A stretch of 64,000 bases of DNA from positions 39,830 to 103,829 of the IMG/VR virus record IMGVR_UViG_3300017774_003070; one strand, given 5' to 3'. The notes under the pieces were generated by a model. That model had not been told where the DNA came from, did not search any database, and worked only from the letters and a program-made list of their open reading frames with translations. Made by a program: the position numbers and the translations under genes. Shown piece after piece: positions 33,120 through 62,463 of the stretch. This DNA is from a virus. The first letter of the stretch is position 1, and each line of letters starts with the position of its first letter.

Positions 33120-33218
33120 GAAGGCTTTTCAGGACTCGAACCTGAATCATTGTACTATAGTTCCCTATAGCCCGATTTGACTTTAACTTGTACAACTTAC
33201 CCTAGCCTTGGGAGCCTC
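33120..33218 (-). ncRNA. tRNA-like RNA with expanded anticodon loop
   Basis: Perfect T arm TCAGG-TTCGAGT-CCTGA; GAGGCT/AGCCTT acceptor-like stem; CCC/GGG D-like stem; TTGTAC/GTACAA stem enclosing about 34 nt with a GGAA-tetraloop hairpin. Confidence 0.65.
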
Positions 33219-33241
33219 AAACGACCAACCTTATTTTATTG

Positions 33242-33249
33242 CAAAACTA
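33242..33249 (-). promoter_or_regulatory. Bacteroidota -7 promoter element upstream of the tRNA-like RNA
   Basis: TAGTTTTG on the minus strand; no well-spaced -33 element. Confidence 0.45.
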
Positions 33250-33362
33250 AACTAAATTTATCAAGCTTCCTTATCTGGACTAAAAATAATCTTAAGAAAA
33301 GCTAGTAATACAAAAAGTGCTATTGCTGACCAAATCATTCTTTGATGTATTTAATACCTGAC

Positions 33363-33698
33363 TCAGATAACTGATTCAAGTACATTTTTGATTTGTGATT
33401 CAGTTGTAATTCTTTTACCTAATCGTTTAACTACTCCTTCTACATACTTCTGACGTTGAGGATTAGAAGAATAAAGATCTTCTGGTTCAACACTGAGCAA
33501 GTAGAATTCAAGTGAAGAGATGTTCAGAGCCATGCAGATTCTACAAATAGCATCAAACCTTGGAATAGCATTACCCTTCTCAAATTGACTAATGCTTACT
33601 GAAGATTTGAAGTTACTGAGAGTTGCAAGCTCTTGTTGAGTCATCTTTGCGTTATCGCGTAGATGCTTAATTGTTTTTGCAAAATTCATGTTGTGCAA
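33363..33698 (-). CDS. XRE-family helix-turn-helix regulator
   Basis: IKHLR....MTQQELA.....S..SISQFEKG...P......IC.AL. Confidence 0.9.
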   Translation of the reverse strand: MHNMNFAKTIKHLRDNAKMTQQELATLSNFKSSVSISQFEKGNAIPRFDAICRICMALNISSLEFYLLSVEPEDLYSSNPQRQKYVEGVVKRLGKRITTESQIKNVLESVI

Positions 33699-33713
33699 TT
33701 AGATAGAATGAAC

Positions 33714-33778
33714 TACCTTTGATGAATGAAAAAGTTAATAATCATTTTAGGAGTTGTCATTGTTGTAGGCTATCTTTG
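33714..33778 (+). promoter_or_regulatory. Two Bacteroidota -7 elements divergent from the XRE gene
   Basis: TACCTTTG (33714-33721) and TATCTTTG (33771-33778). Confidence 0.5.
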
Positions 33779-33841
33779 TTTCATTCTTCTCAAGAAGATG
33801 TTTATCACATTTACAAACATGGTCTTAGACGCAATCTGGAG

Positions 33842-34054
33842 ATGAAATATGTAACCTTAACTAATGACATGATAAAGCTTTCAAGACTTGCTAACGTACT
33901 TGCAGCTAATGGGTTTACTGTAGAACTACAATTCTCTAACCTAGCTATCACTGTACCATACCAATACAACTTGAATAGTTTCATTAATAGATTACCAATT
34001 ACTAACAGATTTGTAGTAAGAGATCGACAATTAAATATTGAATTGAATGGATAA
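33842..34054 (+). CDS. Hypothetical protein
   Basis: Probable start MKYVTLTND downstream of the promoter; overlaps next ORF. Confidence 0.5.
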   Translation: MKYVTLTNDMIKLSRLANVLAANGFTVELQFSNLAITVPYQYNLNSFINRLPITNRFVVRDRQLNIELNG

Positions 34055-34292
34055 TTTGACAGAGTTGATTGAACTCAATGAGGATAAGCTAAAAGAACAT
34101 GCAGACCTCATTAAAGAATGTAAGCAGGAACTCAAAGAGGTACGAATTAGAATTAGTAGGATAACAAGTGAGTTGAATGGAGAATTATCCGAAGAGAAAC
34201 AATTAGAGACTCGCCTGAATAGACTAAGCCTTCAAAAATCATTCCTCTCCGGTTTGGTAGAAGGTCTGGAGAAGAGGGTGGAGGGGATCTGA
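34047..34292 (+). CDS. Coiled-coil protein
   Basis: Heptad-rich; followed by a hairpin at about 34276-34310. Confidence 0.55.
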   Translation: MDNLTELIELNEDKLKEHADLIKECKQELKEVRIRISRITSELNGELSEEKQLETRLNRLSLQKSFLSGLVEGLEKRVEGI

Positions 34293-34454
34293 CCTCTCCT
34301 TCATCCTTCTAAATTAACTGCCCTACTTGTTTACCAGAATCTCTTGCCCAACTACATTTCAACTTTGTAGCTCTAGCAATTGCCTCAAACATAGTTGAAC
34401 ATTCTGAGATGATTAGTCCATCACTGGTATAGATTTTAAATGGAAATGAGTCTT

Positions 34455-60067: not shown

Positions 60068-60090
60068 TGTATTTGATTTAAATAATAAAG

Positions 60091-60248
60091 AAAAAGAACC
60101 CAAGCTACGTATGCACTCTATTGACTGCAATTTACCTAGTTAGTAAACGCACATAGAAACGTATTCATTCTTTTAAGTGGTCATTATCACCTTAGTGAGT
60201 GGGTTATCCCTTGACCAGAATGGGGAGCTTATATCCTTTGGGTCTTTT
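60091..60248 (-). ncRNA. Multibranched structured RNA (unknown family)
   Basis: Nested helices ACCCAA/TTGGGT, AAGCT/AGCTT, CATTCT/AGAATG, TGGTCA/TGACCA, TACGT/ACGTA, TCTAT/ATAGA, TTTAC/GTAAA; 3' U-tract. Confidence 0.55.
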
Positions 60249-60388
60249 CAGAATTGTATCTGAGTCATCCTTGTATTTTAAATACAATACTAGTCAAGGA
60301 AAGCTAGTAAGGGACTACAACTGATTTGTCACATCAGAGGAACAACTAATTCATTACCAATATAGTAGGTCTGTTGATTAGTTAATTG

Positions 60389-60458
60389 TAGAGCTACAAG
60401 GACTTGCACCCTGACAAAAGCCTTAGAACGACCTTATGCTTCATTACATCATAGCTCC
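60389..60458 (-). tRNA. tRNA-Arg(TCT), non-canonical
   Basis: GGAGCTA/TAGCTCT acceptor; AGGTC-GT TCT AA-GGCTT anticodon arm; T loop TGCAAGT; short D loop; no encoded CCA. Confidence 0.7.
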
Positions 60459-60548
60459 TTAAAAGGCTCCCCACACATACTAAAACATAAACTCTGAACG
60501 AATAACAGCTTTATCGGGTAATCCATAAAATTCTAGTGGGGAGCTGTG

Positions 60549-60758
60549 TTATTTCAATAAAAACTTTCCTGCACTTGCAGAGATTAAACATACTTCTTCT
60601 ACAGAGGTTGCAAACATACAAAGTTCTTCTAATACTTGCAAGTATGGTAAATCATCCTCTTTGGCTAACTCATCTACTAATTCACTGAATCGTTTAGTAC
60701 AAAGTATCTCAAGTTCGCTCATACGTTTTAGTAGTACAGTATTTAATTGTAGCCTCAT
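60549..60758 (-). CDS. Hypothetical protein
   Basis: ATGA-coupled. Confidence 0.45.
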   Translation of the reverse strand: MRLQLNTVLLKRMSELEILCTKRFSELVDELAKEDDLPYLQVLEELCMFATSVEEVCLISASAGKFLLK

Positions 60759-61027
60759 ATCATTTGGCTTTCTTCTGCTTCAAGTAAATCTGATTCCAAT
60801 CTCTCATTCTCATAGTAACTTTCCCATTCATCTTCTACTTCTTTTTGGTAAAAGATTGTAGTAGGAGGTTCAGGTAATTCCCAACGAGCAAGTAGTTTAT
60901 CTAAGTATTCTTCATCGCTAATTACAGTAGGCTGTTGAGTATCATCTTTTTGGTTGAACTCTTGCTCTAGTACTTGAAAGTATTGAGGAGTTAACTCAAG
61001 TAATTCATTTTGATAGATTGCACTCAT
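60755..61027 (-). CDS. Acidic hypothetical protein
   Basis: Very Glu/Asp-rich; ATGA-coupled. Confidence 0.5.
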   Translation of the reverse strand: MSAIYQNELLELTPQYFQVLEQEFNQKDDTQQPTVISDEEYLDKLLARWELPEPPTTIFYQKEVEDEWESYYENERLESDLLEAEESQMI

Positions 61028-61416
61028 TTGAAGAATGATTTAAGTTTTAAAAAGAATGAAGGTACTAACTCGTTTTTACGGTATTTAGGCTCAGTACAAC
61101 ACCAATTAGGTACTTTTCTATGAATGTGAGAATCTGACTCAAGGTCAACTTGTATTAAACCATTAGACAAGTAATGAAAGTTAACAACAGTCATTCTTTG
61201 CTTCATGTATTCAACCTCAGTTCCTATTTCAAGTGTCTCGTAGAATTGTTTGTAATCAGGTTTCATTACTTTACATTTAACGGTTAAAAATCGCAGTACT
61301 GTCTGCTTGATTTTAATCCACATTCTGCTACATCTGTCTGATTGAGATTTTATTTCACACGGAGCAGAACTCTCTTTCTTACAAAACTCACAGATTCGTT
61401 TCTTGATGTCACTCAC
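61024..61416 (-). CDS. Hypothetical protein
   Basis: Co-directional; start uncertain. Confidence 0.45.
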   Translation of the reverse strand: MSDIKKRICEFCKKESSAPCEIKSQSDRCSRMWIKIKQTVLRFLTVKCKVMKPDYKQFYETLEIGTEVEYMKQRMTVVNFHYLSNGLIQVDLESDSHIHRKVPNWCCTEPKYRKNELVPSFFLKLKSFFK

Positions 61417-61579
61417 TCTGGTAATTTAAAGATTAGAACTGTGGTTGCATTGAGTCCTATCACTCTACAACGAATGTCTACAAGCCTATTGCCTTTTTTG
61501 ACAAGTAAGTTGTAGATTTTATCTTCTTGTAGTTGCCCAAACTTGTGACTGATAATGTTTTCCCATCTAACTGTTTCCA

Positions 61580-61831
61580 TTACAGTTCATTGTGTATTTC
61601 TTCAAATGAGTGATACAATTCTGGAAGTCTGAACAGTAACACTTTAATCTTGCCTTTTGTATGTACAATCTGGTAAGCCAAGTCGTTATTATTGTAGTTA
61701 GCAAGTCCTTCTAAGAACTCAGCATTTTTAACTACTAGTTCAAATTCTGTAAATACTTTTTCAGTGTACCCACATTGTTCAGCTAGTTTTATTAGCTTTT
61801 TAGTAGGATACATTGTTACTAATCTTTTCAT
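61580..61831 (-). CDS. Hypothetical protein
   Basis: ATGA-coupled. Confidence 0.5.
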   Translation of the reverse strand: MKRLVTMYPTKKLIKLAEQCGYTEKVFTEFELVVKNAEFLEGLANYNNNDLAYQIVHTKGKIKVLLFRLPELYHSFEEIHNEL

Positions 61832-62463
61832 ATTTCAAACGTTTGTAGTTCTGCTAGACAGATGAATCTTGTCTCACTAATCACTTCATCTACACTCCGA
61901 TGAAAATGTCCAAAGAACCAGTATTCAGGTTGATGTAACTCAAACATGACTTGCAGTGCTTGTTCTGTACGTGAACTTTCATCATATCCAAATAGTTGTT
62001 TCTTAACGCTTGAAGGACAAGTGTGACTAAACATATACTTTGGCTTCTGTTCTATGTACAAGTCAACAGCTTCACCTAATCGAGCGTACGACATTTCTTC
62101 GTTACTGAACCAGTCTTTACCTTCAGTTCTAAGATGCTTGTCAATAGAGTTAGCACCTTGTACACCAAAATAATCTGATTCAATCCAGATGTCATCTACA
62201 AGAATAGGTGCTACTCTAGCCCAAGTGTAGTTGATAAGTACTTTAAAGTATTTATCGTAGTCATCGTGATTACCAGGAATAATGCGGAGATTAGTTTCGT
62301 TATTCACCGCACACCAGTTTTTCACTTCATCCCACTGCTTCTGGAAACCTAAGTCTCCAAGCTGTATAATCAACTTACTAGACCTTTTGCGATAATCTGC
62401 TACTAAGTCTAGGAACTGATTTGTCTTACCGTGTACGTCTCCTACAATTAGCATTCCTTCCAA
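61828..62463 (-). CDS. Calcineurin-like metallophosphoesterase
   Basis: GDVHG, GDLG, GNHD, HT, GHFH. Confidence 0.9.
   Translation of the reverse strand: MEGMLIVGDVHGKTNQFLDLVADYRKRSSKLIIQLGDLGFQKQWDEVKNWCAVNNETNLRIIPGNHDDYDKYFKVLINYTWARVAPILVDDIWIESDYFGVQGANSIDKHLRTEGKDWFSNEEMSYARLGEAVDLYIEQKPKYMFSHTCPSSVKKQLFGYDESSRTEQALQVMFELHQPEYWFFGHFHRSVDEVISETRFICLAELQTFEI

Follow-up and report, generated by a model that had tools for sequence, protein, structure and literature searches.

The subject of this work is a 64-kilobase (kb) window, the final part of a 103.8-kb virus record (IMGVR_UViG_3300017774_003070; 96% complete) from a freshwater crAss-like phage, in which an initial annotation had tentatively joined four transfer RNA (tRNA)-like elements, an RNA ligase and a metallophosphoesterase into a single anti-defence or tRNA-maturation system. 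We favor, at a probability of about 0.45, the reading that this interval is not one system but four separate things, and we hold with the same confidence that the inserts in two of its tRNA genes are strain-variable disruptions without a dedicated processing pathway. The first of the four would be the lineage's usual tRNA spot upstream of the family A DNA polymerase gene (PolA), with a working-looking tRNA-Arg(UCU) and two insert-bearing tRNA genes; the second would be a decayed tRNA remnant at 33.1 kb; the third, an Rnl5-type ligase of a replication/recombination block, most likely sealing 3'-OH(RNA)/5'-phosphate duplex nicks; and the fourth, a generic phosphoesterase from a viral family tending to the vicinity of tRNA clusters. 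We infer these functions from observed anatomy, allelic differences, family assignments, synteny and co-occurrence counts, and the system as first proposed is an unproven juxtaposition.

A scan of the whole window with default ARAGORN and with Rfam at the gathering threshold (29 bits for the tRNA model RF00005) returned no tRNA, and Infernal at higher sensitivity recovered two real ones, at 59086-59196 (-) and 60389-60458 (-). T-arm-like hairpins were enriched (8 observed vs 1.4 +/- 1.1 in shuffles), and the three canonical examples were all intergenic. Relatives were found with PolA as the anchor, by an alignment scan of metagenome and IMG/VR contigs that yielded 104 loci beyond the 2 from a first scan (106 in total); megablast against the phage collection gave no match. 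The sequencing runs that hold the tRNA region were all metagenomes, nearly all with a freshwater label. The RNA features of the tRNA spot, with lengths in nucleotides (nt), are the following.

59086-59196 (-), Leu-type (type II) tRNA gene, RF00005 41.8 bits when the additional bases count as an insertion
59134-59164 (-), expanded anticodon loop of this tRNA-Leu, 31 nt (24 extra), from in-silico deletions and a minimum free energy (MFE) fold
59272-59457 (-), tRNA-derived gene with three inserts (the nested element), from the alignment with the relative L003
59297-59345 (-), 49-nt double-hairpin insert at the junction of the T stem 5' strand and the T loop, not in L003
59346-59401 (-), conserved insert core with the 3' strand of the anticodon stem, from the L003 comparison
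59402-59423 (-), 22-nt insert forming a mini T-arm hairpin (ATTGG-TTCAAAT-CCAAT), not in L003
60389-60458 (-), tRNA-Arg(UCU), RF00005 41.1 bits

The closest relative, L003, whose PolA is 98% identical in protein and 87% in nucleotide sequence, aligned through the nested gene and provided a second allele of it. In the window, the nested element has an acceptor stem (AGTTTGC/GCAAACT) with ACCA after it, a D arm, and an anticodon stem (CAGAG/TTCTG) whose two strands are separated by ~70 nt; a hairpin-forming insert replaces the anticodon loop, and the T arm is split. It gave an 18.1-bit partial (minihelix) match to RF00005 at E=1.5, below the tRNA threshold, and we consider it tRNA-derived because of the 7-base-pair (bp) acceptor stem with ACCA and because the T arm is intact in the L003 allele (ACAGG-TTCAAAT-CCTGT). 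That allele has neither the 22-nt nor the 49-nt insert, and the hairpin-forming replacement of the anticodon loop, ~48 nt, is kept in both; the first pair of the acceptor stem is A-U in the window and G-U in L003. The 22-nt insert matches the T arms of relatives' tRNAs at 19 of 21 positions, and the 49-nt insert, which is single-copy in the genome, has a fold z-score of -3.1. Across the insert core, 55 of 56 positions were identical between the window and L003, compared with 78-87% nucleotide identity in the neighboring genes (78% for the hydrolase gene and 87% for the PolA gene).

Three further freshwater studies supplied contigs of the insert-bearing forms, each differing from the window at 0-3 positions; no contig joined across an insert, indicating that the inserts are real alleles. 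One of these sequences, the X4 contig, covers 59270-59488 with 3 differences from the window. Just downstream of the nested gene, opposite window positions 59197-59270, X4 carries a different T-arm-like sequence, a third allele whose replacement sequence reads, in reverse complement, CGTAGGTTCAAGTCCTACCA. This divergence, together with the absence of the Leu gene from L003, marks the tRNA locus as hypervariable. No second copy of an insert was found in the genome or in the 106 loci, and the idea that the inserts are multi-copy mobile mini-elements was rejected on that ground. A tmRNA (transfer-messenger RNA)-like reading was also discarded, as the 14-codon frame of the L003 insert is broken by the window's 22-nt insert and ARAGORN found no tmRNA.

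The Leu-type gene has a 7-bp acceptor stem, a D loop with GG, a long variable arm, the T loop UUCGAGU and the discriminator A73, but its anticodon loop has 31 nt in place of the usual 7. ARAGORN accepted the gene only in intron mode, or after nearly any deletion of 18-29 nt, and acceptance after such varied deletions indicates that the body is sound and the anticodon ambiguous. Deleting 24 nt at 34/35 (59138-59161) gives Leu-UAA, with the insert bounded by a U before it and a G at its end (U/...G/), and deleting 24 nt at 37/38 (59135-59158) gives Leu-UAG. In the MFE fold, a single-sequence prediction, the 3' part of the insert pairs with the anticodon region and lengthens the anticodon stem. 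The extended stem has 8 bp, and the fold also contains a 2x2 internal loop and a helix of 3 bp; a 3-4-3 bulge-helix-bulge is absent from it. The insert is single-copy in the genome and the 106 loci, and two metagenome contigs, X2 and X3, covering 58994-59167 and 59143-59332, were identical to the window. L003 has no counterpart of this gene and carries another tRNA-like sequence at that position; no insert-less allele was found, and the Leu-UAA genes of relatives are uninterrupted.

The tRNA-Arg(UCU) has a normal anticodon arm (loop GUUCUAA) and is the only element of the window with a presentable 7-nt anticodon loop; its D loop is small, without GG, and its T loop, UGCAAGU, is atypical. Relatives carry tRNA-Arg(UCU) at the same position upstream of PolA, and those at 31-49% PolA identity often have ordinary tRNA-Arg(UCU), Leu(UAA), Met and Gln genes there. 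AGA is the commonest Arg codon of the phage and UUA its second commonest Leu codon, and the presence of tRNAs at this spot is the usual codon-supply pattern of phage tRNAs. The abundance of these codons and the tRNAs of relatives favor a Leu-UAA ancestry for the disrupted Leu gene. All three stop codons are used, and stop-codon recoding was therefore rejected as the cause of the odd tRNAs.

Related phages also showed interrupted tRNA genes. In L071 (1535-2383) and L093 (573-1386), tRNA-Arg(UCU) is split in the anticodon loop (CUU/...G/CUAA) by inserts of 776 and 741 nt, respectively; the L071 insert contains an antisense open reading frame (ORF) for a 185-residue HNH-like protein, and Rfam detected no group I core in it. 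A group I intron (RF00028, 64 bits) lies elsewhere in this related phage contig, at L071:15945-16320. In the marine locus L051 (37% PolA identity), tRNA-His(GUG) contains a 27-nt insert pairing with its anticodon loop, and a further tRNA-like gene is interrupted in the D loop by ~50 nt (insert-bearing genes at L051:3945-4050 and L051:9840-9964).

The 24 nt of the Leu gene enlarge its anticodon loop and can pair with the anticodon, and the nested gene carries a conserved rod-like hairpin in place of its anticodon loop; within our preferred reading, this strain has additionally gained the 22-nt T-arm fragment and the 49-nt double hairpin inside the T loop. Neither insert-bearing RNA should be able to read codons as transcribed. 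The inserts would then be strain-variable recombination or insertion products of a hypervariable tRNA locus, belonging with the 'enigmatic introns' known from Lak megaphages, and the genes that bear them would be either disabled or sources of RNAs requiring some processing step.

Conservation of the nested insert could also reflect function, and on an alternative that we consider unlikely the two products would be functional non-decoding tRNA-like RNAs, in which an elongated arm hides the anticodon and which act as host-factor sponges or decoys independently of the ligase and the phosphoesterase. In its favor, besides the near-identity of the core between strains, alleles were identical in independent samples, the nested gene encodes its own CCA, and anticodon-sequestering extended helices recur in L051. 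Such a role sits poorly with a T arm that is split in this strain, with the absence of the Leu element from the closest relative and with the lack of a match to any Rfam tRNA-like family.

A further alternative, which we rate as quite improbable, is that the inserts are genuine introns and that host RNases or some other activity would remove them to yield tRNA-Leu and a second tRNA, with no part for the phosphoesterase. The Leu insert does lie at a canonical intron site (34/35 or 37/38) in an intact tRNA body, its removal at 34/35 would restore the anticodon of the relatives and match the abundant UUA codon, and the L051 tRNA-His insert and the mobile 741-776-nt inserts with an HNH-like ORF in the tRNA-Arg of L071 and L093 point the same way. 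However, 24 nt is too small for a ribozyme, no group I core was detected (RF00028 gave no match in the window at E<=10), and the predicted fold has no bulge-helix-bulge motif; splicing endonuclease is absent from bacteria, to which the host presumably belongs, and none is encoded by the phage. Introns are not known from T loops, the inserts do not have the tRNA shape of those suggested to be excised by RNase P or Z, and an insert-less Leu allele was not found. Cyanobacteria and plastids have a group I intron in tRNA-Leu(UAA), and the Leu insert shares with it the possible U34/A35 insertion point, with U before the insert and G at its end, as well as the occurrence of Leu-UAA in relatives of this phage. 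With 24 nt and no catalytic core, the insert could at most be a group I deletion relic, of which the sequence gives no sign. Descent of the inserts from a group I intron by deletion was rejected: the only match was 11 nt, between the nested insert and the start of the L071 insert, and RF00028 was undetected in both that insert and the window.

The strongly conserved tRNA introns of Lak phages also speak for introns. These 'enigmatic introns' of Lak megaphage tRNAs include one that is itself tRNA-like, cases in which alleles with and without the intron exist, and introns identical across cohorts (Devoto et al., preprint 10.1101/356790). The window shares with them over-long phage tRNA genes, short anticodon-loop inserts without a recognized ribozyme, alleles with and without an insert in related phages (here L003 for the 22-nt and 49-nt inserts) and insert sequences that are near-invariant between samples (here X2-X4). 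It differs in that Lak are gut megaphages and this is a ~104-kb freshwater crAss-like phage, in that one insert lies in the T loop, and in that the Leu insert has only 24 nt and is not tRNA-shaped.

Far from the tRNA spot lies the fourth tRNA-like element, also seen in the scan for T arms, with a terminator downstream of it.

33120-33218 (-), tRNA relic
33057-33082 (-), intrinsic terminator downstream of the relic, 11-bp stem and T tract, 0.1 expected by chance

The relic has a perfect T-arm hairpin (~33129-33145), but its acceptor-like and D-like pairings are weak and an anticodon arm is missing; RF00005 gave no match on 33120-33218 even at E<=10. Based on the hairpin, the terminator and the enrichment of T-arm hairpins, we read it as a tRNA remnant. 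It showed no promoter of its own, with TAnnTTTG not enriched (60 found vs 71 expected) and no sigma-70-like site, and the region had no DNA match in G001, a relative at 67% PolA identity.

The initial annotation had counted four tRNA-like genes and had seen in three of them intact elbows with altered anticodon arms, a bias it judged unlikely under random decay. Two of the four score as tRNAs, the nested element falls below threshold and the 33.1-kb element gives no match. Since the 49-nt insert splits the T arm, the intact elbow fails for the nested element in this phage, and the anticodon arm of tRNA-Arg is normal. The apparent bias arises in part from noticing elements by their T arms. The conserved core argues against plain decay.

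Both enzymes of the proposed system were present as annotated. Their genes and the surrounding block are listed below.

47174-48316 (-), Rnl5-type ATP-dependent RNA ligase, 380 amino acids, from Pfam and an alignment to solved relatives
46557-47165 (-), ERF single-strand annealing protein (PF04404), directly downstream of the ligase
48318-49391 (-), 357-amino-acid protein with a weak DnaB-like match (phrog_19, E=4e-4), directly upstream of the ligase
44423-45313 (-), DNA primase of the replication block around the ligase (phrog_12622, E=9e-14)
55804-57855 (-), family A DNA polymerase (PolA), between the ligase block and the tRNA spot
61828-62463 (-), calcineurin-like metallophosphoesterase, 211 amino acids, from Pfam, with motifs GDVHG, GDLGF and GNHD

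The RNA ligase was confirmed with its N-terminal OB-like domain, matching PF09414 (RNA_ligase) at 43.4 bits over residues 178-365 of 380 and PF21189 at 26.8 bits (cut-off 27) over residues 10-91, the latter also in the precomputed Pfam list. Its architecture is that of Rnl5, an N-terminal OB-like domain and a nucleotidyltransferase domain with no C-terminal appendage. The best solved relative was the Naegleria ligase NgrRnl (alignment residues 31-376), in which vKlDGSS aligns with the motif I sequence vKcDGSS (motif KcDGSS) of the window's enzyme, and K183, D185 and G186 were invariant in alignment A3. The score against TIGR02306 (DRB0094), 43.6 bits with a cut-off of 151, makes it a distant member and not an equivalog. 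With Deinococcus DraRnl and NgrRnl it shares the two domains, the missing C-terminal module and the motif I lysine; it differs in that identity to them is only ~20-25% and in that its gene lies beside ERF in a phage replication block. Rnl5 enzymes such as these two seal 3'-OH(RNA)/5'-phosphate nicks in duplexes (PMC4408790, PMC5397189), and the class acts on duplex nicks, not on anticodon-loop breaks (PMC4408790).

The ligase gene sits inside the primase/ERF/DnaB-like block, 11-13 kb from the tRNAs. Its adjacency to ERF is kept in L114/G001 (6-nt gap), and that of the DnaB-like gene and the ligase is kept in G001. It is the sole ligase of the phage, PF09414/Rnl5-like, with neither an Rnl1-type ligase nor an ATP-dependent DNA ligase encoded. 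In the 96%-complete genome there was no AAA_33 match for a 5'-OH polynucleotide kinase (controls matched) and no PF01139 or PF01974 match for RtcB or tRNA-splicing endonuclease. The closest annotated homologue of the ligase, at 36% identity, is in Pseudanabaena phage PA-SR01 (L107), where a macro-domain (Appr-1-p processing) protein is encoded two genes upstream of it.

The phosphoesterase, annotated as such and confirmed as calcineurin-like, lies 1.37 kb upstream of tRNA-Arg and is a member of a generic viral Metallophos family. Its structure model (pLDDT 86.8) retrieved Dbr1 at ranks 1-11 in Foldseek (E=1e-9), but VIA-align placed Dbr1 (Z 15.8, 19-20% identity) and generic metallophosphoesterases (Z 14.9) in a tie, and a specific assignment to Dbr1 was rejected for this reason. 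With 211 amino acids, and an alignment limited to Dbr1 residues 6-259, the protein is without the Dbr1 C-terminal domain. It has no GDxxDRG motif and no sequence match in PDB, and it is unlike the phosphoesterases that adjoin ligases in other phages: phmmer finds no relation, and the subfamily is different. Its homologues in IMG/VR (L156-L210), at 30-47% identity, occur in many unrelated large phages, often near tRNA clusters.

Counts across relatives spoke against one system. In G001 the DnaB-like, ligase and ERF genes are kept without any tRNA (Infernal, E<=0.01) or phosphoesterase, and tRNAs are present in ligase-negative relatives, both G002-G004 (1-3 tRNAs each) and the loci L086, L093 and L099. 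The initial annotation had tied the insert-bearing tRNAs to both enzymes and suggested co-occurrence across relatives as the check. The window-type phosphoesterase was present in only 1 of 29 ligase-positive records, and a tRNA lay within 10 kb of the ligase in 8 of 47 ligase loci. Short-insert tRNA calls numbered 2 in each anchor set, vs 24, 43 and 123 standard tRNAs, and were not enriched near either enzyme.

Several observations pull against a reading of four unrelated components. Identity of the insert core at nearly every position suggests constraint or recent exchange and not decay, and the Leu tRNA body is flawless outside its insert. Most ligase-positive records (23 of 29) do contain tRNAs. 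When the two closest ORFs on either flank of the ligase were compared across 38 dereplicated loci, Metallophos was the commonest Pfam family (7 ORFs) and two AAA_33 kinases were present; several of these phosphoesterases adjoin the ligase directly, and that of L134 is lambda-phosphatase-like. Arrays of tRNAs surround some ligase homologues (L111, L121), and in L111 (5188-13687) an array of 23 tRNAs, the first two being Leu(UAA) and Arg(UCU), encloses an Rnl5-type ligase with 51% identity to the window's and a lambda-phosphatase-type phosphoesterase. For the window-type phosphoesterase family, 21 of 35 dereplicated loci had a tRNA at a distance of 10 kb or less (nearest tRNA within 2.2 kb in 10), compared with 7 of 33 ligase loci (p=0.0015) and 7 of 23 PolA loci (p=0.035), values uncorrected for phylogeny and genome size. 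Finally, the data suggest that closer relatives keep both enzymes. Together, the family-level neighbors, the tRNA proximity and the conservation of the Leu body and the core make an RNA or tRNA role plausible for one or both enzymes, and the part of the initial annotation that placed them in RNA-based company stands to the extent that both families occur near RNA-repair genes or tRNAs in other phages. Also next to ligase homologues (L109-L155, alignment A4) were one Thg1-family tRNA-His guanylyltransferase, one colicin-type immunity protein, three RuvC proteins and R2K ATP-grasp proteins.

Two known healing-and-sealing systems offer a comparison. Phage T4 repairs PrrC-cleaved tRNA-Lys with Pnkp and Rnl1, and the phage studied here likewise carries tRNAs, an ATP-dependent RNA ligase and a candidate 3'-end phosphoesterase; it differs in having no polynucleotide kinase, in a ligase that is Rnl5-type and not Rnl1, and in enzymes that are separated by 13.5 kb and are not found together in the 67% relative. 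Healing-and-sealing modules of the Clostridium thermocellum Pnkp type use a lambda-phosphatase-type phosphoesterase, and in L134, L149, L121 and L132 a homologue of the ligase adjoins a lambda-phosphatase-like phosphoesterase, sometimes with an AAA_33 kinase; the window differs in that its phosphoesterase belongs to another subfamily and does not adjoin the ligase.

We thus regard as very unlikely the system of the initial annotation, in which decoy or spliceable tRNAs would be healed by the phosphoesterase and sealed by the Rnl5 ligase for anti-defence or tRNA maturation. What speaks for it are the ligase neighbors (Metallophos proteins, AAA_33 kinases, Thg1, the immunity protein and the lambda-phosphatase-like protein of L134), the L111 array, the enrichment of window-type phosphoesterases near tRNAs and the apparent co-occurrence of both enzymes in closer relatives. 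These are outweighed by the absence of a 5' kinase, an endonuclease and RtcB from the phage genome, by the distance of the ligase from the tRNAs and its place in the replication block, by G001, which has the ligase without tRNAs or phosphoesterase, by a phosphoesterase that is not of the ligase-associated subfamily, by insert-bearing tRNAs unenriched near both enzymes, by the heterogeneity of the four RNAs, one with a broken T arm, and by the action of Rnl5 ligases on duplex nicks (PMC4408790). A more explicit form, to which we give equally little credence, is that host tRNA-processing or anticodon nucleases would cut the precursors, the phosphoesterase would heal the ends and the Rnl5 ligase would reseal them, with the inserts hiding the anticodon until processed.

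The minus strand carries the genes from ~30 kb to 64 kb. This arm encodes the primase, ERF, the ligase, the weak DnaB-like protein, an SNF2-type helicase, PolA (26-30% identity to Crassvirales and Leptolyngbya phage counterparts) and a cell-wall hydrolase, followed by the RNA genes and then by small ORFs and the phosphoesterase. Also in the arm are a ThiF-family E1-like protein (41257-41877, -), an EAD11 effector-associated domain protein (54045-54749, -) and a protein with a dATP/dGTP diphosphohydrolase N-terminal domain (39390-39893, -). A 144-residue ORF at 30802-31236 (-) has at its end an incomplete RF-1/GGQ domain (PF00472 at 29.4 bits with a cut-off of 35, over profile positions 24-66 of 116), and the next ORF, at 30440-30805 (-), overlaps it by 4 nt; the two could represent a release-factor-like or ArfB-like gene that is split or frameshifted.

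Since the Lak work, phage tRNAs have been known to carry short inserts that are not ribozymes. To these the locus adds a natural allele pair from which the limits of two inserts, one within the T loop, can be read, and an insert core better conserved than its flanking genes. If the inserts were removed, the locus would offer a simple test case of protein-mediated tRNA splicing in bacteria, and if the cut ends were indeed healed and resealed by the two enzymes, this would amount to tRNA splicing or repair by proteins alone in a virus of bacteria. At the level of families, the analysis gives two leads: Rnl5-type ligases that lie beside healing enzymes or in tRNA arrays, and a small phosphoesterase family near phage tRNA clusters.

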